A program made the position numbers and the translations under genes. Positions 9,548-29,203 of a stretch of DNA of 32,000 nucleotides are shown here, in pieces (position 1 is the first letter of the stretch; every line of letters begins with the position of its first letter). The notes beneath the pieces were generated by a model. That model was not told where the DNA came from. It ran no database searches and was given only the letters and a program-made list of their open reading frames with translations. Source of the stretch: Candidatus Methylomirabilis oxygeniifera (GTDB lineage: Bacteria; Methylomirabilota; Methylomirabilia; Methylomirabilales; Methylomirabilaceae). The stretch is from positions 2,640,001 through 2,672,000 of the forward strand of contig FP565575.1 in NCBI GenBank assembly GCA_000091165.1, read 5' to 3'.

Positions 9548-9665
9548 TACCTCTATTCCAAATTTGGCTATTCGTCGTACGCTTGATGTGCATGAGGCAA
9601 GGTTGCGCGGTAGGCGCTGCGAGTGGCGCGATCCCAAGGGACATTGTTTGAGGAGGCGAAAGCAA

Positions 9666-11556: not shown

Positions 11557-11680
11557 TAGCCCCCACCCTCCTTCGCGGCTACAGTGATACCCGGCAGGAC
11601 CAAGAGTGTCGACGTCGATTTTATGTGTGAGCCGTTACCCTACCAGAACGGACGCAGAAGTCAATACGTGTTCGGGGTTG

Positions 11681-11708
11681 TTGTTGGGCGACTCCGCTGT
11701 GCTATACT
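11681..11708 (+). promoter_or_regulatory. Sigma70-like promoter candidate (TTGTTG-16-TATACT)
   Basis: TTGTTG at 11681-11686 and TATACT at 11703-11708, ~150 nt upstream of the metallophosphoesterase ATG. Confidence 0.3.
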
Positions 11709-11856
11709 GATCTTAGCGTATGAACAGTCTCGGCAGAACAATACGTTTCGTCCACCCCGAGCCTACCGAAAGGGCGGAGGGCAGACAAGAGGTTGTCGGA
11801 CATGCTCCTCGAGGAAAAAATGGGGAGCTTGTCGCTGTGCATGGCTTCGCAGCAGG

Positions 11857-12870
11857 ATGGCAAGGCTGATGAACGGGGTCTTCCGGGTCGCCCACCTCTC
11901 TGATCTCCATCTCACTTCACTGGTCGACGTCACAATCCGCGATCTCCTGAACAAGCGCGCGCTCGGTTACCTGTCCTGGCGCCTTCGGCGCCGTCACGAG
12001 CACGTACCCGCAATCCTGGATGCCCTGCGTCACGACTTGAGCGGGCTGACCCCGGACCATATCGTCATCACGGGCGATCTGACCCATATCGGCCTCCCGA
12101 GTGAATTTCAACAGGCCCAACAATGGCTGGAGACGCTTGGTGCGCCGACCGACGTGACCATTATTCCGGGCAACCATGATGCCTACGTCCGCGCTCCGTG
12201 GGACGATACCTTCGCCTTATGGACGCCCTACATGACCTCTGATCCGGGATCACAGACCGGGGGCCAGCAAGCGCCCGGCGAGTCATTCTTTCCAAGTGTA
12301 CGTGTGCGCGGGCATGTCGTACTGATTGGGGCAACCTCTGCGCGTCCATCCGCTCCGTTTTTCGCTACGGGAAGCCTTGGGACCGCACAGATGGCCAGAC
12401 TTGGCGATCTCCTCGATCTGACCCGCCGACAGGGCCTGTTCAGAATCCTGCTCATCCACCATCCTCCTCTGGCGGCCATAGTCCAATGGCGGAAACGACT
12501 CACCGATGGGGCCGCGTTGATCAGCCTTCTCGCGCGACACGGTGTCGAGATGATTATACACGGACACGCTCATCGCTCTTACGTGGGACATATTCCGTCG
12601 GCGCACGGTGAGATGTCCGTGATCGGGGTCCCCTCTGCTTCTGCGCGCGGGGCAAATCCGGAACGGCGCGCAGCGTACCATGTCTACGAGGTGCGTCCGT
12701 TGTCTCACGGATGGGAGGTTCGGACGTCGGTTCGCAACTACTCCCTGAACGACCGTTGTTTTGTTGCGGGAACGCAGCGAACAACACGGATGCCCGGTTC
12801 GGTCACGGACTTACTGCACACGACGATACACCCACACCGTCACGCCGCCCAGCACGGCCAGCGGGCTTAA
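11857..12870 (+). CDS. Calcineurin-like metallophosphoesterase
   Basis: 337 aa from ATG 11857. The full motif set is present: AHLSDLHL, ITGDLTH, IPGNHD, LIHHPP, IHGHAH. The upstream part of the track ORF (11584-11856) is R/C-rich and unlikely to be coding. Confidence 0.8.
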   Translation: MARLMNGVFRVAHLSDLHLTSLVDVTIRDLLNKRALGYLSWRLRRRHEHVPAILDALRHDLSGLTPDHIVITGDLTHIGLPSEFQQAQQWLETLGAPTDVTIIPGNHDAYVRAPWDDTFALWTPYMTSDPGSQTGGQQAPGESFFPSVRVRGHVVLIGATSARPSAPFFATGSLGTAQMARLGDLLDLTRRQGLFRILLIHHPPLAAIVQWRKRLTDGAALISLLARHGVEMIIHGHAHRSYVGHIPSAHGEMSVIGVPSASARGANPERRAAYHVYEVRPLSHGWEVRTSVRNYSLNDRCFVAGTQRTTRMPGSVTDLLHTTIHPHRHAAQHGQRA

Positions 12871-13878
12871 GACCGTCAACGCCGCGTTCAGATGCAAAAT
12901 AGCCCCCAGATGAGCAATGAAATGGCTGCCCAGATGAAAGGCGGCGCCGATCAGCGATCCGTGAAGGATCCGCTTGCCGGCAGTCGCTTTCCGAAGCGGA
13001 CCGAGCACAAAGGGGATGGCGACGAGGACCATCATCAGGGTCGAGAGGGGCATCGTCATCTGTTGCCACAGCCGAATCTCCAGACGCGCCACATCCTGGC
13101 CGGTCTTTTTCAGGAATGCGATATACTGGCTGAGAGTCGAACGCGATAAAATCTCGGCGGGCAGGACGAGCAGTTCCGCCTGTGTCGGCGTTAACGACCC
13201 GGCCCAGGAAAGGCTGGCAAGCTGTTTCGATGCGACTCCCCCTCCATCGACCATTCGTTGCACGACATCGATGAGCACCCACCGATGTGAACCCTCAGGT
13301 TCGGCGCGCGCGGCCCATGTCACCAGGCGCAACCGATGGTTATCATCGAATTCGTAGATCTCGACATTGGAGAGAATACGACCGGGCAGCACTTGGTACA
13401 CCCGGATAAATTGCCGCCCATCGCGCGACCAGAACCCCTGTCTGGTATGCAGGGCTTCCGGTTTCGAGATCGCCTGGATGCGGCGCATATAGGCGAGCTG
13501 ATCTGCGGATGGAGCGATCCATTCCTGAACTCCTATCACCGCGATCATGAGGAGAATGCCGGTTACGGTCACCGATGCGCCGATTCGCAGCGGCGAGGTG
13601 CCCAAGGTCTGCATGGCGATAAGTTCGTGGCTGCTCGCCAGTTCTCCCAGGCCGATGATGCTTCCCAGTACGGCGGTCGTCGGCGCCAGTTCGATCATCC
13701 GGCTGGGTATTGTCAGGATGACGTTCAGGAACGCGTCGCCCAGCGTGTAGGTGCCGCGGCCCACCGAGTCCAACTCGTTGACGAGGGCCATCAGACTGAA
13801 GACCGACAACAAGACAGCCATCACAAGGGCATAACCCCTGATCACTCTGAACCAGATATGGCGATCGATCGTACTCAC
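12811..13878 (-). CDS. lptG: LPS export ABC permease LptG (YjgP/YjgQ family)
   Basis: 355 aa from GTG 13878, which overlaps the upstream gene's TGA as GTGA. It has the YjgP/YjgQ architecture: 3 TM segments, a periplasmic beta-jellyroll, then 3 TM segments. It is the second gene of the pair. Confidence 0.75.
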   Translation of the reverse strand: MSTIDRHIWFRVIRGYALVMAVLLSVFSLMALVNELDSVGRGTYTLGDAFLNVILTIPSRMIELAPTTAVLGSIIGLGELASSHELIAMQTLGTSPLRIGASVTVTGILLMIAVIGVQEWIAPSADQLAYMRRIQAISKPEALHTRQGFWSRDGRQFIRVYQVLPGRILSNVEIYEFDDNHRLRLVTWAARAEPEGSHRWVLIDVVQRMVDGGGVASKQLASLSWAGSLTPTQAELLVLPAEILSRSTLSQYIAFLKKTGQDVARLEIRLWQQMTMPLSTLMMVLVAIPFVLGPLRKATAGKRILHGSLIGAAFHLGSHFIAHLGAILHLNAALTVLSPLAVLGGVTVWVYRRVQ

Positions 13879-14945
13879 GATTGGGTTGTCCGTCTCCACA
13901 GCAGGCTTGCAACCAGGATCGCTAAGAGAAGATGGACCCACCAGATACCCGGAACGGTGCTCACCACTCCCTTTTCAACCCAATGTCTCGCCATCATGTT
14001 CAGGTTATAAAATGTGGCATAGCTTACGACCGACACGAATAACTTCGCGTACTTGCCTTGGCGTGCCCTGGCACGACTGAGAGGGAAGCCTAGCAATCCC
14101 ATCAGCAGGGCAGCCACCGGGGTTGACAGTCGCCATTGAAACTCCGCGATATCCTTGGGTGAAGCTGAGCGCGCTAATTGCCAGGTTGGAGCGGCTTTCC
14201 GCTTGTACTCTTCCGACAGGGTCCGTGCTTTCTCCCACTCGAGAACCAGTTCGTCGGATGTGGCCTGTCGGACTGCGCCACGATCTCGAGAGAGCTCGTA
14301 GATCTGCGCTCCGGAACAGACCAGGGTCCGGCCGGCGCCCGCTTCTACAGCTTCAGGGTAGTGAGCCTCATCCGCCCAAATGAGCCGAATCCGATCCTCC
14401 GAACGAGACTGGATAAAGACCTCCCGCATTCGACCGCTGCTCTGGGCGCGCCGCTGAAAGAACAGGACAGTCCCGGAGGAGTTTTCGTAGAAGTGACCCG
14501 GCTGCATATCGTTCAGATCGACGTCCGCAGCCGCCTCGCGCTCCAGACGATAGCGATTTTCGTTGGCCCATGGTCGGACATAGATGGACAGAAACGCCAC
14601 GATCCCCGCCACGATCAGAGAACCCACACACACGATACGCATGATTCGTGACGGGCTGACACCGGAGCTGAAGAGAGCGGTCATTTCGGAATCGGTATAG
14701 AGACGACCCAGCGTCACGACAACCGACAGGTGCAGCGCAATCGGCAGCAAGAGCTCCAGTGCCACCGCAGCCCTGACCAGGACCAGCGGCAGCACGCTTT
14801 GAAAGGGCATGATGCCGTCGGCTACCCGATTGAGATAACGGACGGCAGTAAAATTGGCGAACAACAATAACAGCCCGCCGCAAAATATCACAAGCGGCTT
14901 GGCGATCTCCCTGGTCAGATACCGATCGAGTAGCAACATGGGCAT
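13875..14945 (-). CDS. lptF: LPS export ABC permease LptF (YjgP/YjgQ family)
   Basis: 356 aa with N-terminus MPMLLLDRYLTREIAKPL, typical of the YjgP/YjgQ family. It is the first gene of a translationally coupled pair. Confidence 0.75.
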   Translation of the reverse strand: MPMLLLDRYLTREIAKPLVIFCGGLLLLFANFTAVRYLNRVADGIMPFQSVLPLVLVRAAVALELLLPIALHLSVVVTLGRLYTDSEMTALFSSGVSPSRIMRIVCVGSLIVAGIVAFLSIYVRPWANENRYRLEREAAADVDLNDMQPGHFYENSSGTVLFFQRRAQSSGRMREVFIQSRSEDRIRLIWADEAHYPEAVEAGAGRTLVCSGAQIYELSRDRGAVRQATSDELVLEWEKARTLSEEYKRKAAPTWQLARSASPKDIAEFQWRLSTPVAALLMGLLGFPLSRARARQGKYAKLFVSVVSYATFYNLNMMARHWVEKGVVSTVPGIWWVHLLLAILVASLLWRRTTQS

Positions 14946-15084: not shown

Positions 15085-15804
15085 ATGAGGTGTATCATAT
15101 TGAGTGCAGGTCAAGGCCGACGCCTGCTCCCGCTGACGGCGGAGGTTCCGAAATGCGCTCTTCAGATCGGGGGCCAATCGATCGTCGAGCGGCAAATCAC
15201 CCAGTTGATGAAGTGCGGCATCGACCAAGTGACTGTCATCGTGGGTTTCGGGGCCGACAAGGTGGAGCACATCATACGCAGTCATTTCCGGCCGGACCAG
15301 GCGACAACCCTGTATAATCCCTTTTTTGCCGTGAGCGATAATCTGGCCAGTTGCTGGCTGGCCCGTCACCTGATGACCGAGGACTTTATTCTGCTGAACG
15401 GCGATACCCTGTTCGAGCCGGCTATTCTTCAATCTCTCCTGGATACGCCGCTTGAGCCGATCACACTCGTCATAGACCGTAAACCGGCGTATGACGATGA
15501 CGATATGAAGGTGATGGTAGAAGAACGTCAAGCGCTCAGAATCGGGAAGACCTTGAGTCCGGAACAGTCTCATGGAGAGTCGATCGGTATGACGCTGTTC
15601 CGCGGAAGCGGGCCGAACCTCTTCTCCGACGCTATTGAGCGTGCGGTGCGAAAACCCGACGCCCTGACGTGGTGGTATCTCTCGGTCATTAACGAACTGG
15701 CGCAGACAGGTCTGGTCTGGACCTGTCCCGTCGAGGGTCTGAAGTGGGCCGAAGTGGACTGTCTCGCCGACCTTGAGTATGCCAGAAAACTGGCCGTCTT
15801 GTGA
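15085..15804 (+). CDS. LicC/IPCT-like sugar- or alcohol-phosphate cytidylyl(nucleotidyl)transferase
   Basis: 239 aa from ATG 15085 with a GGAGGAG SD at 15071-15077. It has the N-terminal signature IILSAGQGRRLLPLT..PKCAL and the C-terminal W.EVD...DL..A motif, as in LicC-type CTP:phospho-alcohol cytidylyltransferases. Confidence 0.8.
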   Translation: MRCIILSAGQGRRLLPLTAEVPKCALQIGGQSIVERQITQLMKCGIDQVTVIVGFGADKVEHIIRSHFRPDQATTLYNPFFAVSDNLASCWLARHLMTEDFILLNGDTLFEPAILQSLLDTPLEPITLVIDRKPAYDDDDMKVMVEERQALRIGKTLSPEQSHGESIGMTLFRGSGPNLFSDAIERAVRKPDALTWWYLSVINELAQTGLVWTCPVEGLKWAEVDCLADLEYARKLAVL

Positions 15805-15832: not shown

Positions 15833-16633
15833 TTATGAATTGTTGCTCCCGGCCACCGTCTGAGCCAACTCCCAATCACTGATCGTATCCACGTCCAGCG
15901 CAGCCTCAGGAAATGGGAGCATGATGACGTCGATCGAAAGGTTGAGGCGCCGCGAGAGCCCGGCGAGGGCCTGAGGAAGCGACAACCATCCGAAGACAAA
16001 CCTCAAGACCGACGTCCAGCCCAGCATCGAAATGAGTCGGACCGGTTTCTTGCGCAGGCCTTCGACCCGGCTCCAGAACTGTATCAGCGAACGGCCTCGT
16101 GCGGTCAACACCGCATACAGGTTACATCCGCAGACCCCACCGTCCTGGAACTTGAGTACGGTACGCCGCATCGTCGGGTAAGCGGTCGCGACCAGATCGT
16201 GTGCGGCCAATCCGACTACGACATCGGCATTGCCGGCCCGCGCCGCCGAACAAAAGTAGTCGATGACCCGGGCGTTGAGGAGGGCATGGTCCGCCGTCAC
16301 CAGCAGAACCGGATGGTCCTGGGGTAACGACTGCATGACGGTGTATGCGCTGACGCTGGGCGTCGCATACGCCTCGTGCCATGCGACCGCCTCGGACACG
16401 ACCAGACCGCGAAGCTCGTTGTTCATCTCCACTGCCTGCCACTGAGGCCCGCACAGGATACGATCTCCGATCGCTTGCGCCTCAGCCAGGGCGCCCAGTA
16501 CGCGGAGGACCATGGGGACGCCTCCAACAGGAACCAGCGCCTTGCACTGGACTCCCGCTGCGCGAGCCACCGGGTCGTCAGGCGCACGGTCCCCGGCAAG
16601 CACAATCGCGGTAAACGGCTGACTATGACTCAT
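15833..16633 (-). CDS. MobA-like (NTP_transf_3) nucleotidyltransferase
   Basis: 266 aa. The N-terminus AIVLAGDRAPDDPVARAAGVQCKALVPVGGVPMV and the mid-protein LLVTADHALL resemble the GT-A fold MobA-like NTP transferase family. Its ATG overlaps the upstream gene's stop as ATGA. Confidence 0.65.
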   Translation of the reverse strand: MSHSQPFTAIVLAGDRAPDDPVARAAGVQCKALVPVGGVPMVLRVLGALAEAQAIGDRILCGPQWQAVEMNNELRGLVVSEAVAWHEAYATPSVSAYTVMQSLPQDHPVLLVTADHALLNARVIDYFCSAARAGNADVVVGLAAHDLVATAYPTMRRTVLKFQDGGVCGCNLYAVLTARGRSLIQFWSRVEGLRKKPVRLISMLGWTSVLRFVFGWLSLPQALAGLSRRLNLSIDVIMLPFPEAALDVDTISDWELAQTVAGSNNS

Positions 16634-17832
16634 TGCAATGCCTTTTCATAGATCCGGTAGCGCTTATACGGTACCCCCCCTATGGTGACCAGCATATTTC
16701 GCATCGGCATGTTGTCCTCCAGGATCCAGGACAGCTCAACCTCTCGGACTCCGCGCCTGATTTCATATTCGCGCACCGCATCGATGAGCATGAAGGCCAG
16801 CGCCGCCCCCATCGCGCCTCCTTGAAAAGACTTACGTACGCCCATTAGAGCGACGCGGGCCGTAGTCGGACGCCGAACCTTGAGCCGCCACAAGAGCTTG
16901 AGCCAGCCGAACGGCAACAAACGTCCATCAAGATCGCGTATCGCTTCATTGAGATTCGGAAAGGCCACGATCATGCCGACGGGCGCCCCGTCGATTTCCG
17001 CAATTTGTACGCACTCATCCTCAACTAATAGTCGCAAGCTGTTCCCCAGATCCTGGAACTCCTCCTCCGTGAAGGGAATGAAGCCCCAGTTTTCAGACCA
17101 CGCGTCCTCGTAGATCTCTTTAAGAATGCGGAGTTCTTCTTTCATTGATGATCTGCGCAACGGCCTGATTCGGACATAGCCGGCAGCTTTCTTCACAACG
17201 GTCCGCATGAGCGCAGGGGGCGTAAAATCGGCAGCCACACGGTAGGCCAGCAGGTCTTTCGAGCCCTGGTATCCCTCGGCGATGATCCGATCGGCATAAT
17301 AGGGGCGGGCATGACCCATCATAATCATGGGCGGCGTCTCGTACCCCTCCACGAGCAACCCGCACTCCTGGTTGATTGAGAGGTTGAATGGACCTCGGAT
17401 GCGTAACATCCCATGGTCGCGCAGCCATGTTTCCGCCGTACTCAACAAGGCGTGAAACGTTTCCGCGTCGTCCTCAGCTTCAAGCAGACCGAAAAAACCG
17501 GTGGCATCCCGATACTGCGCCTCATGCAGCGCGTCAATTTGGGCGCTGATTCGACCGATCGGCTTGGTCCCGCGGTAGGCGAGCCAGAAACAGGAGCGCG
17601 CGTGCGCGAAGTAGGGGTTACGCGGAGAGAACTGCTCCCGACGCTCGATCAGCAAGGGGGGAATCCACGCGGGATCGTCGGCATAGACCGACCACGGGAG
17701 ACGAATAAATCGGTGAAGATCCCGCGATCTGTTTATCGGTACAATGCGTACGGATTCACGAGTGGCTTGTATGGCAGGGGGTGTATCTCCAGGCAGGGTT
17801 GTGGAGTTCCGATCGGCCACTACGCCACCCAT
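16630..17832 (-). CDS. Large GNAT-like N-acyltransferase (candidate bacterial ceramide synthase)
   Basis: 400 aa from ATG 17832. The conserved-looking body starts at VRIVPINRSRDLHRFIRLPWSVY. The C-terminal acyl-CoA N-acyltransferase-like core is ..APVGMIVAFPN...VALMGVRKSFQGGAMGAALAF...ELSWILEDNMPMRN. The function call is an inference from context. Confidence 0.7.
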   Translation of the reverse strand: MGGVVADRNSTTLPGDTPPAIQATRESVRIVPINRSRDLHRFIRLPWSVYADDPAWIPPLLIERREQFSPRNPYFAHARSCFWLAYRGTKPIGRISAQIDALHEAQYRDATGFFGLLEAEDDAETFHALLSTAETWLRDHGMLRIRGPFNLSINQECGLLVEGYETPPMIMMGHARPYYADRIIAEGYQGSKDLLAYRVAADFTPPALMRTVVKKAAGYVRIRPLRRSSMKEELRILKEIYEDAWSENWGFIPFTEEEFQDLGNSLRLLVEDECVQIAEIDGAPVGMIVAFPNLNEAIRDLDGRLLPFGWLKLLWRLKVRRPTTARVALMGVRKSFQGGAMGAALAFMLIDAVREYEIRRGVREVELSWILEDNMPMRNMLVTIGGVPYKRYRIYEKALQ

Positions 17833-17888
17833 GCGGGAATCGATCTGCTCGCTTTTAACAAATCGTACAGTCCCCTTTCGTTTTTTTG

Positions 17889-17917
17889 TTGCACAAAACC
17901 GCTCAGTTTTGTATATA
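17889..17917 (+). promoter_or_regulatory. Weak sigma70-like promoter candidate (TTGCAC-17-TATATA) in the divergent intergenic region
   Basis: TTGCAC at 17889-17894 and TATATA at 17912-17917 (TATAAT at 17914-17919). The AT-rich core could act as a -10 element in either orientation. Firing rightward, it would leave a ~400-nt leader before ATG 18320. Confidence 0.25.
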
Positions 17918-18319
17918 ATACGCGCTGGCCTTTGGCAGTGACGGCGGTAGACCGGGCAGCTACCTGAGATGGACACTATTATGCACGTTTAGCCATGGCG
18001 TTCAACACATTAAATTGGTTTTATGAGACGGTATGTCTGCCATCCTCGTGCGCGTAGTGAGTGCAGACGAGTATCGCAACGGCGATGTACTGTTGTACAC
18101 CTCAATACGTCAGCTCCCTCAGAAAGGCGTGCGGCGCTGGCGATCTGCCGCCGGTCGTTTTATGCGGGCCGCTCAGCAGGTGGGCTTACCGCCTGCAGTC
18201 GTTACGAAGAGATTGAGCCTGTTCGGTTCCTCTTTAGCCAGTACGTAACAGACCTTTCCGGCGCTGAGAGGTTGGGTTATCAGTCAACTTCGTTTTGTGT
18301 ATAGGGGGGTGTAGGGGGA

Positions 18320-20146
18320 ATGATAACAGAACCAACGCCGACTGAGAATACCCTGCCGCTTCGAGTCACCGGCTTCTCCACGCTGGCCGAAGCGCTGGAT
18401 TATGCAGCCGGGGGGGGGACCGGATTCAATTTTTATGGGGACCGCGGTGAGCTGTACGCCGTCCTGCCGTATGCCGATCTTCGAGAGCAGGCGCGATTAC
18501 TGGCGCGTCGCCTTATGGGGCTGCGCCTCGAACGGGGCGCGCACGTGGCCATCGTCGCGGATACCGGTCCGGATTTTCAGCGCTTCTTCTTCGCGTGTCA
18601 GTATGCCGGCCTGGTGCCTGTTCCTCTGTCGGCATCGCTCCTCATAAGCGGTCGCAAGCGATACGTCACCCAACTTCGGGCGCTTCTGGCAAACTGTCGT
18701 CCGTCCATCGCGATGGCTCCACCTGAATTTTTCCCATTCCTCAGCGAGGCCGCCGATGGCCTCGAGCTGGTCCACGTCGGTACGGCAGACGCGTTTGACA
18801 GCCTGCCCGAATCCTCAGAGGAGTTGGAGCCGTTACGTTCCGAGGAGATGGCCTATCTTCAATATACCTCAGGGAGCACACGGTTTCCCCGCGGGGTCAT
18901 GATTACCCAGAGCGCGGTCCTTGCCAATCTGGAGGGGATCCTTCAACAGGGTCTTCAGATTCGCTCGGGAGATCGCGCGGTATCCTGGCTGCCTTTTTAT
19001 CACGATATGGGGCTTGTGGGATTTGTGCTCGCGCCGATGGTGGGCCAGGTATCCGTCGATTATCTGAAAACGCAATCGTTTGCCATGCGACCCCGGTTGT
19101 GGCTGGCCCTGATGACACAGGCGAAGGCCACGATCTCTTTCAGCCCTTCCTTTGGATATGAGATGTGCGTGAGGCGCCTCAGGCATGATGAGGCCGGCAG
19201 ATTTGACCTTAGCGCATGGCGCGCTGCAGGGGTAGGCGCTGAAACCATTCGGCCCGGCGTCTTAAAGGATTTTGCAGATGTGCTGGCGCCGAGCGGATTC
19301 AAGCCCAGCGCATTTCTGGCCTGCTATGGCATGGCGGAGGCCTCCCTTGCTGTGACGTTTGCGCCGATAGATACTGGTGTTGCCGTTGATCGGGTAGACC
19401 GAACCCTGTTGGCCAAGTATGGAGTGGCCTCCCCCCTGCACGAGTGTGAGATCGGGTCGGACTCGGATAAAACGAGCATAAGCCAATTTGTCAACTGCGG
19501 CGTTCCACTGTCCGGAATTGACGTTGAGATACGAGACGAACAGGGCCATGTTCTGCCTGACCGTCACGCAGGCATCATTTTCGTACGAGGCGCCAACATG
19601 ACCTCCGGTTACTTCGGCGATCCCGAGAAAACTCGAAAGGTCTTGTCTTCGGACGGATGGCTCGATACGGGAGACCTCGGATATCTTGTAGACGGCAGTC
19701 TCGTCATCATCGGCCGAAAGAAAGATGTCATTATCGTGCATGGACGGAATATCTGGCCTCAGGATCTGGAGCATCTTGCCGAGGAGTTACCGGAGGTCAG
19801 GCCTGGCGACGCATGCGCATTCTCGGTGGAGACCCCGGACCGGACCGAGATGGCGGTGATGGTCGTTCACTGCCGTGAGCTGGATACCGTCAAGCAGGCC
19901 GATTTTATCCGCCGGCTGCAAGGGCTTATCCGTGAGTATTTTGCGCTCGACTGTTTTGTTGAGCTTGTTCCTCCTCGTACCCTGCCGCGCACGTCCTCCG
20001 GGAAGCTCTCCCGTTCGAAGACCCGGGAAGAGTTCTTGGGTCGCAATGACGCGGCCCGACTCTTTCACGGCCGAAACGGATCCGGTCACATCAGTCTTCC
20101 GCAGCCCGGTCGGCAAGCGGACTCATGCGCGGCGTCATCGCGCTGA
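18320..20146 (+). CDS. Fatty acyl-AMP ligase / acyl-ACP synthetase (FAAL-like adenylate-forming enzyme)
   Basis: 608 aa with the AMP-binding core YLQYTSGSTRFPRGVMIT. It also has FAAL-like features (YGMAE, DTGDLGY, GRKKD, SSGKLSRS). Confidence 0.9.
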   Translation: MITEPTPTENTLPLRVTGFSTLAEALDYAAGGGTGFNFYGDRGELYAVLPYADLREQARLLARRLMGLRLERGAHVAIVADTGPDFQRFFFACQYAGLVPVPLSASLLISGRKRYVTQLRALLANCRPSIAMAPPEFFPFLSEAADGLELVHVGTADAFDSLPESSEELEPLRSEEMAYLQYTSGSTRFPRGVMITQSAVLANLEGILQQGLQIRSGDRAVSWLPFYHDMGLVGFVLAPMVGQVSVDYLKTQSFAMRPRLWLALMTQAKATISFSPSFGYEMCVRRLRHDEAGRFDLSAWRAAGVGAETIRPGVLKDFADVLAPSGFKPSAFLACYGMAEASLAVTFAPIDTGVAVDRVDRTLLAKYGVASPLHECEIGSDSDKTSISQFVNCGVPLSGIDVEIRDEQGHVLPDRHAGIIFVRGANMTSGYFGDPEKTRKVLSSDGWLDTGDLGYLVDGSLVIIGRKKDVIIVHGRNIWPQDLEHLAEELPEVRPGDACAFSVETPDRTEMAVMVVHCRELDTVKQADFIRRLQGLIREYFALDCFVELVPPRTLPRTSSGKLSRSKTREEFLGRNDAARLFHGRNGSGHISLPQPGRQADSCAASSR

Positions 20147-21078
20147 CGGGAGCGACCGGATTTATTGGAAGCGCCCTGGCTCGAAGGCTGACAAAGGAAG
20201 GATGGCAGGTACGCGCGCTACACCGTTCACCAACCCCGCCGGCATACCTGACGGGCATCTCGCTGGAGTGGGTACGGGGGACGCTCGATGATCGCGATAG
20301 CCTTGAAGGCCTGGTGGGCGACGCGGATGTTGTGATCCATTGCGCCGGGGCCCTGCGCGGTATTACCGAGACAGACTTTTACCCGGTCAATGTTGAGGCA
20401 GTCTCACGGCTGGCCTCTATCGCTGCGAGCCGCAGTCCTGCCCCCCGATTTCTCCTGATCTCATCCCTGGCAGCTCGAGAGCCCGGATTATCACCCTACG
20501 CGGCCAGCAAGCGGATGGGGGAGATCGCCCTGTCGAAAGCGGGTGACCGGCTGCTGTGGACCGCGCTTCGCCCTCCAGCGGTCTATGGTCCAGGTGACCG
20601 CGCATTGCTTCCCTTGCTTCGCCTGATGTGGCATGGGATTGCCCCCATACCTGGGCGCCAAGACGCCAGATTCTCCTTACTCTACGTGGAAGATCTGGCG
20701 GAAGCCGCGGTGAAATGGCTCGCCGGCGACGTCCCGGAGAGATGTGCATTTGAGTTGGATGATGGACATCCTCAGGGATATACGTGGCGCGAGGTGACGG
20801 AGACCTTCGAACGGCTCAGGGGAAGATGGGTGGTTCGTATTCACGTTCCCGAACTGATGTTGAAACTGACTGCCGGGCTTAACAAGATGGCGGCTTCCGT
20901 GATAGGATATTCCCCGATGTTGACCCCCGGCAAAGTACGGGAGTTCAGGCACCCGAACTGGATCTGCGATAACGCTCCGTTTCGCCGGGTCGTCGACTGG
21001 ACGCCGACGGTGGAGCTGGAAGAGGGGCTGCGGCTGACGCTTGGCCTCCAGGGTGGTAAACTGACAACTAGAAACTGA
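20125..21078 (+). CDS. NAD(P)-dependent epimerase/dehydratase-family (extended SDR) reductase, candidate ceramide reductase CerR
   Basis: 317 aa with the Rossmann motif LTGATGFIGSALARRL and the catalytic Y...K in YAASKRMGE. It overlaps the ligase gene by 22 nt. Confidence 0.8.
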   Translation: MRGVIALTGATGFIGSALARRLTKEGWQVRALHRSPTPPAYLTGISLEWVRGTLDDRDSLEGLVGDADVVIHCAGALRGITETDFYPVNVEAVSRLASIAASRSPAPRFLLISSLAAREPGLSPYAASKRMGEIALSKAGDRLLWTALRPPAVYGPGDRALLPLLRLMWHGIAPIPGRQDARFSLLYVEDLAEAAVKWLAGDVPERCAFELDDGHPQGYTWREVTETFERLRGRWVVRIHVPELMLKLTAGLNKMAASVIGYSPMLTPGKVREFRHPNWICDNAPFRRVVDWTPTVELEEGLRLTLGLQGGKLTTRN

Positions 21079-21111
21079 AAACTCAACACTTCATAGCTTC
21101 ATAGTGAACAG

Positions 21112-21360
21112 ATGACCCACTACGAAACGATACTTCCACAGCTCTATGAGATCTTGAAGCCGTTCACGCAGGAAGGCCAGGCTCTATCCGATGAGACGGA
21201 GCTCGTAGCCGATCTCGACCTCGATTCGATGAAGGTCATGGAGATCCTGCTTGAGGTGGAGGAGCGGTTCGACATCTCAATCCCCTTAAATGTCATCCCG
21301 GACGTCCGAACCATTAGAGATTTTGCCCGCCAGATCGAGCAATTGACGGAGCGGAGGTGA
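21112..21360 (+). CDS. Acyl carrier protein
   Basis: 82 aa and acidic. The phosphopantetheine attachment motif is DLDLDSMKVMEIL. Confidence 0.9.
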   Translation: MTHYETILPQLYEILKPFTQEGQALSDETELVADLDLDSMKVMEILLEVEERFDISIPLNVIPDVRTIRDFARQIEQLTERR

Positions 21361-22547
21361 CAGTGCTTCTGGAGAAGTTCCGACCACTCGCCGACGCCCG
21401 TGAGGCGTTGACACAATTAAGCCAAGATCCCTTTCGGGTGACGATTGAACGAATTCTGTCGCCGACGGAGGCCCTCGTCAATAGTCGTCCAATGATTCTG
21501 GCCGGAACGAACAACTACCTCGGTTTGACGTTCGATCCTGAGTGCATAGAAGCAGCAGTGCAAGCGGTGCGGGAACAAGGAACAGGTACGACAGGATCCA
21601 GAATGGCAAACGGCAGCTTCAGCGGACATCTTGCATTGGAGAAAGAGTTGGCAGAATTTTTTGGGCGCCGGTGGTGTGACGTATTCTCAACCGGCTATCT
21701 GGCCAACTTGGGCGTGATAGCGGCGCTCACCGGGCCTGGCGACGTGATCCTGATCGATGCCGATTGCCATGCGAGTATTTACGATGGATGCCGGATGAGC
21801 GGGGCGGAGATTATTCGATTTCGTCACAACGACGTTGCCGACCTCTATAAGCGCCTCGCGCGTTTGAAGGAGCGAAGCACGAACACGCTGATCATTGTGG
21901 AGGGTCTCTACAGCATGCTCGGCGATCGGGCGGCGCTGGCGGAGATTGCGGCCGCAAAACGCGAGTTCGGCGCGTATCTGCTGGTCGACGAGGCCCATTC
22001 GCTTGGCGTTTTGGGGGAGCGGGGCCGTGGGCTGGCCGAGGAGGCCGGCGTCGAAGACAGCATCGACTTTATCGTCGGAACGTTCAGTAAGAGCCTGGGC
22101 GCGACCGGCGGGTTCTGCGTCTCGGATCATCCTGAGATTGACCTGGTCAGATATGTCAGCCGTCCGTACATCTTCACCGCGTCGCCTTGTCCATCAGTTA
22201 TCGCCTCCACAAGAGTCGCCTTGCACAAGCTTCGGACTCATCCGGAGCTGCGCGTGCGACTCTGGAACAATGCGCGGCAGTTGTATGACTCGTTGAAAGG
22301 ATTGGGATTCAGGCTGGGCCCGGACCCCAGTCCGATTATTGCGGCCCGATTCAGCCAGAAAGACGAGACGATCGCTTTCTGGAACGGTCTCCTCGATCAA
22401 GGCATCTACGTCAACATGATATTGCCGCCGGCCGCTCCCGACGGTGGAAGCCTGCTCCGATGTAGCGTGAGCGCGGCGCATACACCGGATCAGATGGACC
22501 GCATTTGCCAAGCCTTTGCGTCCGTCAAGGCGGCTCTCCCCTCTTAA
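21357..22547 (+). CDS. spt: Alpha-oxoamine synthase, serine palmitoyltransferase-like (PLP-dependent)
   Basis: 396 aa. Its GTG start overlaps the ACP stop (GTGA). It has NNYLGL, the PLP-lysine motif GTFSKSLGATGG, and VDEAHSLGVLG. The Spt versus BioF/Kbl assignment rests on context. Confidence 0.8.
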   Translation: MTVLLEKFRPLADAREALTQLSQDPFRVTIERILSPTEALVNSRPMILAGTNNYLGLTFDPECIEAAVQAVREQGTGTTGSRMANGSFSGHLALEKELAEFFGRRWCDVFSTGYLANLGVIAALTGPGDVILIDADCHASIYDGCRMSGAEIIRFRHNDVADLYKRLARLKERSTNTLIIVEGLYSMLGDRAALAEIAAAKREFGAYLLVDEAHSLGVLGERGRGLAEEAGVEDSIDFIVGTFSKSLGATGGFCVSDHPEIDLVRYVSRPYIFTASPCPSVIASTRVALHKLRTHPELRVRLWNNARQLYDSLKGLGFRLGPDPSPIIAARFSQKDETIAFWNGLLDQGIYVNMILPPAAPDGGSLLRCSVSAAHTPDQMDRICQAFASVKAALPS

Positions 22548-22641: not shown

Positions 22642-23583
22642 ATGTACTGGTGGACACCTCTGCGCACACGCTCCGCGTTCAAGCGGTTGGTCCGCGAGCT
22701 GGATCCGGACATCGCCCTCACCCTTGTCGACGTTGGCTCGGCCGGTGGACTGAAGGATCGGTGGCGGCTTCTGGAAGGGCGGTTGCACAGCTATTGCTTC
22801 GATCCGCGCGAGGATGCTTTGCCCAGAGAGGAGTCTGATAGGACTGTGCTGCCATTCGCGGTGGGTCGCACGCAGGGTACCGCGGATTTCTACCGTACCC
22901 ACTTCGGAAACATGAGCTCCATGCTTCGACCCAATGCGGATACCCTGTACAGATTTTACAATCGCGAGTTTAAGTTCGAGGTAGTATCCGTCGAGAAACT
23001 GATGATTCAGCCTCTCGATAACGTTATTCCAGGGTCCGAGATCGATGCCCTGAAAATAGATGCGCAAGGCGGCGAACTGGAGATTCTTCTTGGAGCGCAG
23101 AGGCTGCTGGACTCCGGTCTGTTGCTGGCTGAAGTTGAGGTGTCCTTCATCGAGCGCTATATGGCCCAGCCGCTGTTCGGAGATGTTGCGGCCTTCATGC
23201 GCTCACACGGCTTCGACCTTCTCGATCTCTATCGGTTGCGGCACTACTACCGCACCAACCGCCGCGGCCTGCGAAAGCATCAGATGATTCCCGATTCGCA
23301 GTCCGGCCAACTCTCGCATGCCGACGCCATCTTCTTTCTGAGCGACGAGGCATTTCTGTCATGGCTCGATCGACTGGCTGTCGTCGGCAAGTCGAGTTTT
23401 TTGGTGAAGGCGATTCTTCTGCTGTTGATCTACGGGAAGTTCGATCGGGCGCTGCAGCTTTTTGAGGAGCACCAGACCTTGTTGTCTGAATCGTCGCGGA
23501 GGTCGCTTGCGCTTTTTTTCGACCAGCTTCCGCTGTCCGATCGCCGCTCCGCCACATCGCGAAACAAGGGGTTTCACGGGTAA
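22642..23583 (+). CDS. FkbM-family methyltransferase
   Basis: 313 aa with VDVGSAGG (AdoMet motif I) and IDALKIDAQGGELEILLGA, both typical of Methyltransf_21/FkbM. Confidence 0.8.
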   Translation: MYWWTPLRTRSAFKRLVRELDPDIALTLVDVGSAGGLKDRWRLLEGRLHSYCFDPREDALPREESDRTVLPFAVGRTQGTADFYRTHFGNMSSMLRPNADTLYRFYNREFKFEVVSVEKLMIQPLDNVIPGSEIDALKIDAQGGELEILLGAQRLLDSGLLLAEVEVSFIERYMAQPLFGDVAAFMRSHGFDLLDLYRLRHYYRTNRRGLRKHQMIPDSQSGQLSHADAIFFLSDEAFLSWLDRLAVVGKSSFLVKAILLLLIYGKFDRALQLFEEHQTLLSESSRRSLALFFDQLPLSDRRSATSRNKGFHG

Positions 23584-23873
23584 GTGACAGATGCAGAAAG
23601 CGCAGCGTGGTCGAGAAACCGGCCAGCCCAGGCCGTAAGTTATTATTCTTTGATGAGCACAAGCTCGCAACTCTGCTCGCGAATGCCGGCGCTGGAGCAT
23701 AATCATTCCCGCAGTGTAGGCTCCCATCGCGTAAAATCGGCCTAGGTTCGGAAGAGCTACCCGCAGTGACGATACCACGGAGGCAGCATAGCAGCATCGT
23801 AACAATGTTGCAGCAACGTTGGCCCCGGAGGCCTTGCGTTTAGCCGCGTCAGTTCAGACAGGTGTGTGTTGCT

Positions 23874-25628
23874 ATGCGGTTTTTGATCACCATTATTCGG
23901 AAGTATCCCCGCCGAAGCGCGCTGACGATGGTCTGCCTGCTGTTTGCGAGCGTTGCAGAGGGGGTCGGGCTCCTCATGCTGCTGCCCGTGCTCAGCGTGG
24001 CGACCGACAATCAGACCCGGGACACCGGTTCTCACCTGTTCGGAACGGAGCAGTTTCTGATGCAGGCGTTATCAGTCGTGGGGCTGACGCCGACGGTCGG
24101 CACGTTGCTGATTCTTATCGTCCTCTGTGTGGCGGTTAAATCGGCCTTCACCCTGTTGGCGAAAATTCAGGTCGGATACACTGTGACGCACGTCGCCACC
24201 GGTTTGCGGCTTTCTCTGCTGCAAACCCTGCTGGCTACACGGTGGGAGTATTACGTACGGCAACCGGTCGGGAGCTTAGCCAACGCGGTAGGCACTGAGG
24301 CGATGCGGGCGGCACTGGCGTATCTTGAAGGCGCCAAAGGCATCACCTTATTCGTTGAAGCCATCGTCTATGCAGGTGTGGCCTTCGTTGTTGCAGGGAA
24401 GGCGACCTTGACGTTTCTGATTCCAGGAGTATTGATCCTCTACGGTCTCAGCTATCTCGTTCGTATGGCGCATCAGGCGGGAACCCGCCAGACCAGATTA
24501 TTGAAATCCCTTGTGGCCGGCTTGACGGATAGCCTCCAATCCATTAAACCACTCAAGGCAATGGCGCGGGAAGAGCTGATCGGTCCATCGCTTCAGTCCA
24601 GCACCAGGCGCTTGAACCGGGCGGTCCGGCGAGACGTGCTGAGTACGGAGGCCCTGAGTTCCTCTCAGGATCTCGGGCTGGCGATCGTCATTGCTGTCGG
24701 GTTATACCTGGCTTTGAGTCGGTGGAATATGCCCCTGAATGCCGTCATGGTGATGGTCCTTCTTCTTGCTCGAATGCTGACCTGTCTTGCCAAGACGCAA
24801 CGGCAATACCAAAAAATGCGAACCCTTGAAAGCGCCTTCTGGTCATTGCGGGCTGCGATCGACGGCGCGAACCGTGATCGCGAAACGGAACCCGGAGGCG
24901 CGTCTCCCAGCCTCGAAAGGTCTCTTCGCCTGGACAAGGTCAGCTTCGGATATGACAAGCAATGGGTGCTTCGGGATGCGTCGCTGACCATTCCTGCGGG
25001 ATCATTCACTGTCATCATAGGGCCTTCAGGGGCCGGCAAGACGACGGTTGCCGATCTGTTGACGGGCCTGTTGCGCCCGCAGCAAGGCTGCGTCTGGATC
25101 GACGATCTGCCGTTAGACCGGATTGATTTGAGGCAGTGGCGGCGGATGATCGGGTACGTGCCGCAAGAGCCTTTCCTCCTTCACGACACCGTGCTGCAGA
25201 ACGTGACGCTTGGCGATCCCGGTCTGAACGAGGCCGATGCCGAGGCGGCACTGCGTGCCGCCGGCGCCTGGGACTTTGTGACGGCACAACCGTCCGGGAT
25301 CCACAGCTCGGTCGGAGAACGCGGCACCGCACTTTCCGGAGGCCAGCGGCAACGCATTGCGATCGCCAGGGCGTTGGTGCATCGGCCGAAGCTGCTGATC
25401 CTGGATGAGGTGACCAGCGCGCTTGATCAGGAGAATACGGCGACGATTTGCCGAACGCTGCGCGGTCTTCGTGGTCGACTGACCATCGTGGCGATCTCAC
25501 ACGAGTCTGCCGTGGTAGAGAGCGGCGACAGGGTCTATCGGATACACAAGGGCGAAGCGTCTTTAGTCACCAACGGCTGCGATTCGGATGTGGTCTTCGG
25601 TGGATCGGTGAAACAATCTCAAAGGTAG
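23874..25628 (+). CDS. ABC exporter, fused TMD-NBD (MsbA-like lipid/polar-lipid exporter)
   Basis: 584 aa from ATG 23874 (GTG 23862 is an alternative). A six-TM N-terminal domain is followed by Walker A GPSGAGKTT, signature LSGGQRQRIAIARAL and Walker B LLILDEVTSALD. Confidence 0.9.
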   Translation: MRFLITIIRKYPRRSALTMVCLLFASVAEGVGLLMLLPVLSVATDNQTRDTGSHLFGTEQFLMQALSVVGLTPTVGTLLILIVLCVAVKSAFTLLAKIQVGYTVTHVATGLRLSLLQTLLATRWEYYVRQPVGSLANAVGTEAMRAALAYLEGAKGITLFVEAIVYAGVAFVVAGKATLTFLIPGVLILYGLSYLVRMAHQAGTRQTRLLKSLVAGLTDSLQSIKPLKAMAREELIGPSLQSSTRRLNRAVRRDVLSTEALSSSQDLGLAIVIAVGLYLALSRWNMPLNAVMVMVLLLARMLTCLAKTQRQYQKMRTLESAFWSLRAAIDGANRDRETEPGGASPSLERSLRLDKVSFGYDKQWVLRDASLTIPAGSFTVIIGPSGAGKTTVADLLTGLLRPQQGCVWIDDLPLDRIDLRQWRRMIGYVPQEPFLLHDTVLQNVTLGDPGLNEADAEAALRAAGAWDFVTAQPSGIHSSVGERGTALSGGQRQRIAIARALVHRPKLLILDEVTSALDQENTATICRTLRGLRGRLTIVAISHESAVVESGDRVYRIHKGEASLVTNGCDSDVVFGGSVKQSQR

Positions 25629-25711: not shown

Positions 25712-25812
25712 AAGTTGCTGTTTTTAACCTCGCCTTCCGAACGCGTGACCCGGTATCGGGATAACGGCGGGGCGGCGTCCCGCATTCCCAGAAAGTGTAT
25801 TCGTTTCACGTC

Positions 25813-27018
25813 ATGACCGTATACGCCCACATACTCGGAGAGGCTCCAGCCACGCTATGGGGGCTTTCATCCAGAGAGCGCTACCGTCGTGTACTGGCGC
25901 CGGTCGGTGTCACCGCGATTGCGGATGATCTCTCCTCGTTGCGTCCGGACGATTCGGTGTTGATTGTTCGAGGGGATTATCTCTTGGACAGCCGCGTCCT
26001 CCAGGGCTTGACTGAGTCCTTACACGTCATGATTGAGGCGCCGGCCGGGCCATCGCGTGCGCTTATCGTAGCTCACGTGCCGGCCAATCTGGCAATGGAG
26101 GCGAGGGCGGTTCTCTCCCTGGAAAAGGGTGCGGCACTCCCGCCATCCGTTCGTATCGAAAAGCTTGAAGACCAACTGGTCTCATTCGATAGGCGGTTGC
26201 GCAAAGCGGAGCCACCCTTTGCGGAACCGATCAGGGCCGATACGAAACGGGCGTTGGAGGAGCGCCTATTTTCCAGTTCGTATAAAGGCGTGACCGATCT
26301 CGTCACGAAGTGGCTGTGGCCTTCGCCTGCCAAATGGGCCGTACATCTGTGCGTAGCCGCCGGGCTGAGACCCAACCATGTGACCGCGGTCAGTGTGCTG
26401 TTAGTCATAGCGGCTGCGATCCTTTTTGCGAAAGGTCTCTACGGGTGGGGTCTTGCCGCCGGATGGTTCATGACCTTTCTTGATACGGTGGATGGCAAGC
26501 TTGCTCGGGTGACGGTCACCAGCACCAGATTTGGGCACCTGCTTGACCACGTGTTGGATCTGGTACATCCGCCCTTCTGGTACCTGCTGTGGGGATTCGG
26601 ACTGGAGTCATTCGCCCCTGGCATTCCGTGGCTGACCCTGCGTGTGGTGATATGGGCGATTTTCATTGGATACATTGGCGGACGTCTTGTCGAGGGGATA
26701 TTCAGAAAGTGGCTTGCCGGTTTTGTCATCTTCTGCTGGCGTCCTTTTGACTCGTACTTCCGATTGGTAACGGCCAGGCGCAACCCGAATATGATTCTGC
26801 TCACCGCAAGCCTCATCTTCAGCAGGCCGGACCTGGGATTAGTGGCGGTTGCCGAGTGGACAGTGCTGTCGACGCTTGTGCTCCTGCTCCGCCTCGGCAT
26901 TGCCTTCTATGCGCGCACGCATGGACCGTTGCGATCCTGGCTGGCCGACGATACCGGGCGTGCCGGCAACGGCTCGCTCGCCGTACGGCTGTTTGTCCAT
27001 CAAGTTCCCACTCCGTAA
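25813..27018 (+). CDS. CDP-alcohol phosphotransferase with N-terminal extra domain (DIPPS-like architecture)
   Basis: 401 aa from ATG 25813 (GTG 25795 is an alternative). A perfect CDP-OH-P signature D-x2-DG-x2-AR-x8-G-x3-D-x3-D (DTVDGKLARVTVTSTRFGHLLDHVLD) is encoded at 26482-26559. It is preceded by ~155 soluble residues and then YKGVTDLVTKWLW...RPNHVT. Confidence 0.85.
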   Translation: MTVYAHILGEAPATLWGLSSRERYRRVLAPVGVTAIADDLSSLRPDDSVLIVRGDYLLDSRVLQGLTESLHVMIEAPAGPSRALIVAHVPANLAMEARAVLSLEKGAALPPSVRIEKLEDQLVSFDRRLRKAEPPFAEPIRADTKRALEERLFSSSYKGVTDLVTKWLWPSPAKWAVHLCVAAGLRPNHVTAVSVLLVIAAAILFAKGLYGWGLAAGWFMTFLDTVDGKLARVTVTSTRFGHLLDHVLDLVHPPFWYLLWGFGLESFAPGIPWLTLRVVIWAIFIGYIGGRLVEGIFRKWLAGFVIFCWRPFDSYFRLVTARRNPNMILLTASLIFSRPDLGLVAVAEWTVLSTLVLLLRLGIAFYARTHGPLRSWLADDTGRAGNGSLAVRLFVHQVPTP

Positions 27019-27048: not shown

Positions 27049-28095
27049 ATGTTGCAAGGTATGATGCCAGCGCACGGGAAGAGTGACGCGAGTCGTGCAT
27101 CCGGTGCGTGCCTGCCGTTGGACAAACACGGCACGAGGCGGGTCGGCGTGCTGATCAACCCGGAGAGCGGGACGAATCGAGAGGGTCTTCAGGCCCTCCT
27201 ACACGTCCTGGACCAGTATAAGCCGGTGATCCACCGGTATGTCGTCGGCCCGGCAAGTGTAGCCGGCGCTCTTGCGGCAATGGCTGCCCAGCGAGTGGAT
27301 GTCGTGGCTGTCTGCGGTGGGGATGGAACCGTCCAGGCTGTGTTGACTGCCCTGTTACACAACGGACCCTTTGCCGCATTGCCGTCCCTGGCGCTCATTG
27401 CAGGAGGGACCTCGAATATGACCGCTGCCGATGTCGGCGTAGTCGGCAAGCCGGCGCGGGCATTGCGGCGCCTGTTGGCATGGTCTGAGGGAAGGGGCCC
27501 GACGGGTCAGGTTGTGCGACGGGCGATCCTGCGAGTGGATGGCGGGGCGGACCGCGCGCCGCAGTTTGGGATGTTTTTCAGCGCGGCCGGCATCGTCGAC
27601 GTCACCCGCGCCCGATGGGCGACCCGTCGGCGGGCCAGATCGAAACCGATGCGCGGCGCCTTGGGGACGGCTGTTACGGTCAGCCGGTATCTGCTGGGTC
27701 TTGCGCTTGGACGTCGAGTTGTCGAACCGACTCCGATCTCGGTCCGCTTAGACGGTCGGTCACACAGTGCGAATAACTACCTCGCGCTGTTCATCACGAC
27801 CTTGGAACGGTTAAATCCCGGGATACGACCATACTGGGGCGAGGGACATGGTCCGCTCAGGTATACGGCGGTGGCCTATCAACCGCGGAACCTGCTGCTG
27901 GCTGCGCCTTCGCTTATCCGTGGCAGACGCAGCCGATACCTGACGCCGGAGTCCGGGTATGCGAGCGGGAATATCCATGAAGCCGTGTTGCAACTTCAGA
28001 CGGAATGCGCGCTTGACGGAGAACTACTCGGGAGCGCGACGCCGCGCCCACTCGCGGTAACTTGCGGAGGGGAGGTTAACTTTGTACGATTATGA
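27049..28095 (+). CDS. Lipid kinase of the DAGK-catalytic-domain family (YegS/BmrU/sphingosine-ceramide kinase-like)
   Basis: 348 aa with VGVLINPESG, VCGGDGTVQAV and IAGGTSNMTAADVG, the canonical DAGK_cat motifs. Confidence 0.8.
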   Translation: MLQGMMPAHGKSDASRASGACLPLDKHGTRRVGVLINPESGTNREGLQALLHVLDQYKPVIHRYVVGPASVAGALAAMAAQRVDVVAVCGGDGTVQAVLTALLHNGPFAALPSLALIAGGTSNMTAADVGVVGKPARALRRLLAWSEGRGPTGQVVRRAILRVDGGADRAPQFGMFFSAAGIVDVTRARWATRRRARSKPMRGALGTAVTVSRYLLGLALGRRVVEPTPISVRLDGRSHSANNYLALFITTLERLNPGIRPYWGEGHGPLRYTAVAYQPRNLLLAAPSLIRGRRSRYLTPESGYASGNIHEAVLQLQTECALDGELLGSATPRPLAVTCGGEVNFVRL

Positions 28096-29203
28096 AAAAA
28101 AAGCGGCGGTTGTCGCTCAGCAAGAGACTCCGGATTTTTCCCGCCGGGAGATCAAGAAGCTCGTTCACGATCTATTCACGCCCAAGCCGCTACTCTATTG
28201 GACCGATTTCCTGGTTACGGTGTCCATCGGGTACGGTTTTGCCGCAATCTACCTGACGGCGCCGGCCTTCTCGCTGCTTCAGATTGCCGCAATGTTGTTG
28301 TCCGGACTGGCGTTGTTTCGGGTCGGCATCTTCATTCATGAGCTTGTCCACAGGGAGGAACCCTCCATGATAGGATTTCATATCGCCTGGAATCTTCTTG
28401 TCGGGATGCCCCTGCTCATGCATTCATTTCTGTACAGGAATCACCTCGACCATCATCACCCACGCAAGTTCGGAACGCCCGCCGATGGTGAGTATCTACC
28501 CCTGGGCTCGGCTCCCCTTCGAGAAACTGCGTTGTATTTCGCACAAGTCCCGGTCCTGCCGATCATGGCCGCCTTCCGCTTTCTGATCCTCGTGCCGTTG
28601 TCGTTCCTGAATCCCCGTTGGCGAAGGTGGCTCCTCGAGTGTCGGTCATCCTATGCGATCGATCCCTACTATAGGCGCACCATCCCATCAACGGAACGTC
28701 TGGATCTCTGGGCTGCGCTTGACCTGCTCGGCTTTGTCTGGGTGGTCGGTGCTCTTACCTTGATTCTCAGCGGTGTGATCGCATGGACGACGATCGGGCT
28801 CTTGTATTGCCTGGCCATCTGGACGATCGGCCTGAACTGGATTCGTACTCTTGCTGCGCACCGGTTTATGAATGAGGGCGGCAACATGACGTATGAGGAG
28901 CAGGTTGAAGACTCCCTCACCATCGGGGGGCATTCCCTCCTGTCGTATCTCCTGTTTCCGATCGGTTTGCGGTACCACACCATTCATCACCTGTTCCCGC
29001 TGATGCCCTATCATGCGATGGGCGAGGCGCATCGCCGCCTGATGAATGGGCTTCCCGAAGACTCGGTGTACAGAAAGACGATCGTCCCCGGTTTGGTGGC
29101 TGTGCTCCGAGATCTCCTGCGTCACGCCAGTCTGGCAGGAAAGGCCGGCCGCAATCCGATGCAGGTGTGGCGCCATCCGGAAACGGCGACGTATGCGCGA
29201 TAA
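28082..29203 (+). CDS. Membrane fatty-acid desaturase-family enzyme (candidate sphingolipid desaturase/hydroxylase)
   Basis: 373 aa. The TTG start at 28082 overlaps the kinase gene by 14 nt, and there is no in-frame ATG before residue 71. Three His boxes are present (HELVH, HLDHHH, HTIHHLFP) with flanking TM segments. Confidence 0.8.
   Translation: MYDYEKKAAVVAQQETPDFSRREIKKLVHDLFTPKPLLYWTDFLVTVSIGYGFAAIYLTAPAFSLLQIAAMLLSGLALFRVGIFIHELVHREEPSMIGFHIAWNLLVGMPLLMHSFLYRNHLDHHHPRKFGTPADGEYLPLGSAPLRETALYFAQVPVLPIMAAFRFLILVPLSFLNPRWRRWLLECRSSYAIDPYYRRTIPSTERLDLWAALDLLGFVWVVGALTLILSGVIAWTTIGLLYCLAIWTIGLNWIRTLAAHRFMNEGGNMTYEEQVEDSLTIGGHSLLSYLLFPIGLRYHTIHHLFPLMPYHAMGEAHRRLMNGLPEDSVYRKTIVPGLVAVLRDLLRHASLAGKAGRNPMQVWRHPETATYAR

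Follow-up and report, generated by a model that had tools for sequence, protein, structure and literature searches.

Does Candidatus Methylomirabilis oxygeniifera, a member of the NC10 lineage (Methylomirabilota), carry the genes to make ceramides, and if so, with what equipment around them? The question is raised by four adjacent genes at positions 18320-22547 of a 32,000-nucleotide (nt) stretch of contig FP565575.1 (assembly GCA_000091165.1, positions 2,640,001 to 2,672,000 of the forward strand), the whole of which is called the window here. An earlier note, made from the DNA letters and their translations, had likened these genes to the ceramide core of Caulobacter: a ligase, a short-chain dehydrogenase/reductase (SDR) and an acyl carrier protein (ACP), together with a pyridoxal phosphate (PLP)-dependent α-oxoamine synthase. 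The analysis reported here indicates that the block is very probably an aasR-cerR-acpR-spt operon for bacterial ceramide synthesis, with the N-acyltransferase gene bcerS lying divergently just upstream. Gene identities are assigned from homology and synteny, and the chemistry is that of published Caulobacter work. The five genes are as follows.

16630..17832, - strand: bcerS/cerS-type GNAT N-acyltransferase, ~400 amino acids (aa) from the ATG at 17832, the open reading frame (ORF) reaching a GTG at 17976; Pfam Acetyltransf_1
18320..20146, + strand: aasR-type fatty acyl-AMP ligase (FAAL)/acyl-ACP synthetase, 608 aa, containing YLQYTSGSTRFPRGV
20125..21078, + strand: cerR-type NDUFA9-like extended SDR, 317 aa, with TGATGFIG and YAASK
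21112..21360, + strand: acpR-type dedicated ACP, 82 aa, with DLDSM, in which DSM is the phosphopantetheine site
21357..22547, + strand: spt, serine palmitoyltransferase (SPT), 396 aa, with a GTG start and GTFSKSLG

The four same-strand ORFs of the earlier note, their coordinates and the motifs quoted for them all reappear in the ORF listing and translations. Its description of the block as translationally coupled holds at the ligase/SDR junction, where the end of aasR and the start of cerR overlap by 22 nt, and at the ACP/synthase junction, where the acpR stop and the spt start overlap by 4 nt (GTGA) behind the Shine-Dalgarno-like GGAGCGGAG; it does not extend to the SDR-to-ACP junction, which is a 33-nt spacer. 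Pfam assigns the four proteins to AMP-binding (5.8e-52), Epimerase/extended SDR (5.7e-26), PP-binding (6.8e-10) and Aminotran_1_2 (6.3e-55), and the four-gene block with its motifs and domains is far beyond chance. Comparison with the two closest relatives gives ratios of nonsynonymous to synonymous substitution (dN/dS) of 0.08-0.22 for all five ceramide genes, a sign of purifying selection and therefore of functional genes.

The synthase passes the NCBIfam SPT equivalog NF047599 (631.8 bits against a cut-off of 500), and its top matches in the PDB are the two Sphingomonas SPTs, 2x8u (1.3e-130) and 2jg2 (4e-126), the latter being ~50% identical over its full length. At that level of identity to solved SPTs, active-site residues could be read from the 2jg2 alignment. 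His159, Asp231, His234, Lys265 and Arg390 are catalytic and PLP-binding residues of the S. paucimobilis enzyme; H138, D211, H214, K245 and R368 of the window protein align with them, and the PPATP segment of the Sphingomonas SPT reads PPAAP. These residues of the S. paucimobilis and S. wittichii enzymes are thus kept in the window protein; Arg378, which differs, is considered below. The exact sequence of the window Spt had no match in the assembly collection.

The partner proteins point to the same pathway. The ligase scores 762 bits against the NCBIfam fatty acyl-AMP ligase family NF006624 (cut-off 600) and is 44% identical over 563 aa to the FAAL of the Escherichia coli sphingolipid cluster; from sequence and linkage to acpR-spt it is an AasR-type FAAL, predicted to acylate AcpR. 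The ACP falls under every housekeeping AcpP cut-off in NCBIfam (42 against 84 bits) and shares 39% identity with the ACP of the E. coli cluster, an AcpR orthologue. The SDR, also 39% identical to its E. coli cluster counterpart, reaches no curated NCBIfam family and no sugar-epimerase equivalog. Orthology to sugar-nucleotide epimerases, which the earlier note had named as an outcome that would tell against its reading, is not what was found: the GalE model gives 24 bits against a cut-off of 262, and the solved relatives of the protein in the PDB are almost all NDUFA9, the 39-kDa subunit of complex I. CerR itself is described as NDUFA9-like in PMC11087976. The divergent GNAT is 48% identical to E. 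coli YghO over 373 aa (E 7e-130).

The E. coli locus, annotated as yghO on the minus strand, then FAAL, NAD-dependent epimerase family protein, ACP and spt on the plus strand, followed by lptG and lptF on the minus strand, is collinear with the window over five genes including the divergent GNAT, at 39-57% identity, with Spt (57%) at the upper end. As in the window, LptF/G genes are adjacent and the junctions are overlapping or tight; unlike the window, the E. coli cluster is without the head-group genes found there. The sphingolipid cluster is widespread in the species: of 5426 complete E. coli genomes, 4099 give an acpR-spt DNA match that is annotated as spt. The genes from yghO/ECD_02850 to ECD_02854 are orthologues of Caulobacter CC_1154 and CC_1162-1165 (Padilla-Gomez et al. 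2022, PMC9386255), and Neut_0458-0461 of Nitrosomonas eutropha are orthologues of CC_1162-1165 (PMC9386255). The order aasR-cerR(epi)-acpR-spt of N. eutropha and of the E. coli BL21-type cluster is identical to that of the window, although the N. eutropha acyltransferase lies elsewhere in the genome (Neut_1100); in sphingomonads it is aasR that is unlinked (PMC9386255).

In Caulobacter these genes are named aca/cerS (CC_1154), aasR (CC_1165), epi/cerR (CC_1164), acpR (CC_1163) and spt (CC_1162), and AasR loads a fatty acid onto AcpR, whose acylated form is the preferred substrate of Spt (PMC9386255). Caulobacter crescentus, likened by description, has the same five protein families and the same four-gene block as the window. 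The earlier note had placed the genes for Spt, ACP, CerR and an acyl-ACP synthetase next to one another in that organism, and CC_1162-CC_1165 bear it out (PMC9386255, PMC11324152); its further proposal, that a dedicated ACP and ligase supply the fatty acid to Spt, is correct and had already been published for Caulobacter (PMC9386255). The window differs from that proteobacterial case in its NC10 host and in that bcerS directly adjoins the operon.

The block recurs widely. A scan of species-representative genomes with the window Spt returned 80 loci, and all window proteins were compared with the loci by tblastn (counts out of 81, limited mainly by contig ends; L numbers below are our locus labels). 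The closest are Candidatus Methylomirabilis and other Methylomirabilota metagenome-assembled genomes (MAGs), at 96, 94, 89, 87 and 82% aa identity in the Spt scan, the closest Methylomirabilota MAGs sharing 92-94% nt identity over the common region. Homologues of the ligase occur in 66 loci, of the SDR in 74 and of the ACP in 78, with the GNAT present in 40; the order and strand of ligase, SDR, ACP and spt are unchanged in 63 or more. The ACP-spt junction is no longer than 4 nt in 41 of the 45 loci where it is measurable, and the 22-nt ligase/SDR overlap is found again in 16, the other loci having spacers. Loci with the block come from Methylomirabilota, Nitrospirota, Acidobacteriota, Desulfobacterota, Gammaproteobacteria, Nitrospinota, Calditrichota and others.

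In the closest MAG, assigned to Ca. M. oxygeniifera (L001, 93-94% nt identity), synteny is lost exactly past the spt stop (L001 9467-19457 against window 22537 onward), where NeuB-like, SDR, aldehyde dehydrogenase, CMP-sugar cytidylyltransferase-like, transketolase-like and methyltransferase genes follow instead. The break could reflect a variable region or a rearrangement.

The divergent intergenic region between bcerS and aasR spans 487 nt (17833-18319). An Rfam scan of the whole window returned no RNA family, and therefore no riboswitch was found in this region. Scans for promoters and terminators gave only consensus-level matches, the best plus-strand promoter-like site lying at 17890-17919; two terminator-like hairpins occur on the plus strand of the region. 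The counts are near chance, and those of terminators are at chance level.

Several points weigh against the ceramide assignment. The residue aligned with Arg378 of the S. paucimobilis SPT is leucine (L356) in the window synthase, as it is in E. coli spt. The SDR shows no sign of an N-terminal signal peptide, its Rossmann motif beginning at residue 8; Caulobacter CerR is reported as periplasmic and peripheral to the inner membrane, with an export route that the source leaves undefined (PMC11087976). Orthology to the characterised Caulobacter enzymes is established by way of E. coli counterparts and published work rather than by direct comparison, and the correspondence of the accessory genes described below to those of Caulobacter is drawn from domain type and synteny, the Tam41-like match reaching E values of 0.005-0.013. 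In the literature library searched, no paper links Methylomirabilis or Methylomirabilota to sphingolipids, and the supplement of a Black Sea study does not mention Methylomirabilota.

One alternative is that the block merely resembles the ceramide core, being a BioF or Kbl housekeeping gene or else a signal pathway of the CAI-1 or amino-polyketide type; the ligase-ACP-synthase trio, as the earlier note had pointed out, occurs in such pathways as well. The scores in bits of 331.5 for BioF (cut-off 426), 303 for Kbl (460), 227 for ALAS (338) and 198 for CqsA (428) effectively refute this. The collinearity with the sphingolipid cluster over five genes also speaks against it, and so do the LptFG, kinase and CDP-alcohol transferase genes that recur nearby; clear BioF or Kbl orthology, the result that the earlier note had set against its own proposal, is absent. 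It is very unlikely, too, that the synthase uses alanine, glycine or cysteate and so makes 1-deoxy-sphingoid, sulfonolipid/capnine-type or other amino lipids. α-Oxoamine synthases are promiscuous and 1-deoxyceramides occur in environmental bacteria, and the leucine in place of Arg378 could be read in the same direction; this leucine is, however, common to E. coli spt, the SPT equivalog is passed, and the matches that follow the SPTs in the PDB, Kbl (1e-61) and a cysteate-C-fatty acyltransferase (5e-57), lie far below the SPT level of 1e-130. Identities of the synthase as BioF, Kbl, CqsA or cysteate acyltransferase were rejected on these profile and PDB scores. Among the neighbours, besides bcerS and cerR, is a gene for a ceramide-kinase-like protein, and such a kinase requires a C1 hydroxyl, which serine alone provides. 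The amino-acid substrate, left by the earlier note among serine, alanine, glycine and cysteate, is thus less open than it had stated, and serine is strongly favoured on sequence grounds.

With the block read as a ceramide operon, AasR would adenylate a free long-chain fatty acid and load it onto holo-AcpR, Spt would condense acyl-AcpR with L-serine to 3-oxosphinganine with loss of CO2, the GNAT bCerS would add an amide-linked acyl chain, and the NDUFA9-like SDR, CerR, would reduce the 3-keto group to give dihydroceramide. This sequence of N-acylation and then reduction is one of two published models, which the window does not tell apart. It is the order of the Klein laboratory, for which PMC11087976 reports that deletion of cerR accumulates oxidised ceramide and that CerR fusions behave as periplasmic. 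The Geiger laboratory, in the Olea-Ozuna/Geiger model, proposes a eukaryote-like order for the same gene set (PMC9386255), in which cytoplasmic reduction of 3-oxosphinganine to sphinganine by the SDR comes first and the GNAT then N-acylates the sphinganine, with the same genes and products; for the window this is possible, if on balance doubtful. A cytoplasmic, NAD(P)H-using enzyme would fit an SDR that lacks a signal peptide and is translationally coupled to a cytoplasmic ligase, two features that give a periplasmic location no support, and both 3-oxo-sphinganine and sphinganine are reported substrates of bCerS. The Caulobacter deletion and fusion results stand against this order.

The ceramide operon forms the core of a ~19-kb island (11.6-30.2 kb), whose other genes are listed here with the number of loci that have them.

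11584..12870, + strand: metallophosphoesterase, CC_1158-like by domain type; Pfam Metallophos, 13 loci
12811..13941, - strand: LptG; TIGR04408, 319.5 bits, above cut-off
13875..14945, - strand: LptF; TIGR04407, 314.7 bits, above cut-off
15085..15804, + strand: nucleotidyltransferase, CC_1152-like by domain type; Pfam NTP_transferase and NTP_transf_3, 32 loci
15833..16633, - strand: MobA-like nucleotidyltransferase, CC_1153-like by domain type; Pfam NTP_transf_3, co-located in 40 loci
22642..23583, + strand: FkbM-family methyltransferase, between spt and the ABC exporter gene; Pfam Methyltransf_21, 2.5e-13
23862..25628, + strand: MsbA-type ABC exporter, candidate sphingolipid flippase; Pfam ABC_membrane and ABC_tran
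25795..27018, + strand: CDP-alcohol phosphatidyltransferase family protein, CC_1159/CpgA-like by domain type; Pfam CDP-OH_P_transf, 6 loci
27049..28095, + strand: DAGK/LCB5-type lipid kinase, ceramide kinase CpgB-like; Pfam DAGK_cat, GGDG in the translation
28082..29203, + strand: membrane fatty-acid desaturase/hydroxylase family protein; Pfam FA_desaturase, 7 loci
29193..30155, + strand: Tam41/Mmp37-like protein, CpgC/CC_1161-like, a weak match; 320 aa, sole Pfam hit PF09139 (E 0.013)

Compared by description, the domain types of the phosphoesterase, LptF/G, the two nucleotidyltransferases, the CDP-alcohol transferase, the lipid kinase and the Tam41-like protein match those given for CC_1152, 1153, 1155/56, 1158, 1159, 1160 and 1161, the match of the Tam41-like protein being weak, and by this measure the accessory set corresponds to that of the Caulobacter CC_1152-CC_1168 phosphosphingolipid/Lpt2 cluster (PMC9386255, PMC11324152, PMC11087976). 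The Caulobacter cluster includes LptF2/G2 (PMC11324152), and LptF/G genes lie near spt in 34-40 of the loci examined here. CC_1153 is MobA/CofC-like, CC_1158 has a phosphoesterase domain, CpgB has an LCB5 diacylglycerol-kinase domain with GGDG, and a DesA-family hydroxylase modifies Caulobacter sphingolipids (Olea-Ozuna et al. 2024, Dhakephalkar et al. 2023). The nucleotidyltransferase at 15085..15804 also has a weak NCBIfam match to inositol-1-P cytidylyltransferase. For the Tam41-like protein, a profile built from 12 homologues ranks 6ig2, a Tam41 structure, first in the PDB (E 0.005), and the gene pairs with the kinase gene in 11 loci, the desaturase gene sitting between the two in the window; it is probably the counterpart of CpgC (CC_1161). 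Directly after it (30173-30688) comes the gene for a DUF2141 protein, which has a signal-like sequence at its N terminus and homologues near spt in L003 and L018.

That the other island genes share the domain types of the Caulobacter ceramide-phosphoglycerate/Lpt2 system suggests, by analogy, that the ceramide probably receives a phosphate and an anionic head group and is carried to the outer membrane. An anionic phosphosphingolipid would probably be the product of the kinase and the enzymes for the head group, with the ABC exporter and LptFG as its route outward. Three genes set the window cluster apart from that of Caulobacter: those for the MsbA-type ABC exporter, the FkbM methyltransferase and the desaturase/hydroxylase. 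The Wzx-like CC_1166, LptC2 and CC_1167 of Caulobacter, for their part, were not seen in the window. Among the 81 loci, an FkbM homologue is found in L002 alone, at 67% aa identity, where the flanking genes are at 93-98%; it may provide a lineage-specific lipid methylation step.

The ABC exporter reaches no NCBIfam equivalog. In 48 of the 69 loci with enough sequence, including some among L005-L010 and L021-L076, its gene directly follows spt, no more than 600 nt away and with the same orientation. The putative flippase of Caulobacter, CC_1166, is Wzx-like (Olea-Ozuna et al. 2024, Dhakephalkar et al. 2023), and an identity of the exporter with CC_1166 was rejected on that account. The Klein laboratory states that no sphingolipid flippase is known (PMC11087976), and a literature search found no paper on an spt-linked ABC flippase. 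A fuller picture can be offered tentatively: NC10 methanotrophs would make an anionic phospho-sphingolipid of the Caulobacter ceramide-phosphoglycerate type, modified in this lineage by the FkbM and desaturase/hydroxylase enzymes, and the ABC exporter would act as the flippase, carrying (oxo)ceramide over the inner membrane to reach CerR and a dedicated LptFG.

Other parts of the window hold genes of different kinds. At 112-1801, the gene for an XhoI-family restriction endonuclease and, overlapping its end, that for an N6/N4 DNA methylase make up a type II restriction-modification pair. On the minus strand, 5081-9423 encodes a CrtC/lipocalin-domain protein, an FtsX/MacB-type permease (854 aa) and an ABC ATPase in an apparent operon, adjoined by genes for an OmpA-family protein (9519-10220) and a CitMHS_2 transporter (10231-11556).

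The four-gene core is already known, its order is published for N. eutropha and E. coli, and it teaches nothing new on mechanism; Spt-like genes with CerR and bCerS neighbours have moreover been reported in MAGs from ~40 phyla (PMC11334938). The novelties are small: the NC10 host, the spt-linked MsbA-type ABC exporter and the lineage-specific FkbM methyltransferase. For the organism, the finding predicts sphingolipids in Candidatus Methylomirabilis, probably phosphorylated and outer-membrane bound. Methylomirabilis is a nitrite-dependent methane oxidiser whose lipids serve as environmental biomarkers. For the pathway, the window offers a non-proteobacterial case of one island that gathers all five ceramide genes together with most genes for the head group and for transport, useful for tracing how the pathway spread, and the recurrent spt-linked ABC exporter gives the missing flippase of bacterial sphingolipids a concrete candidate.

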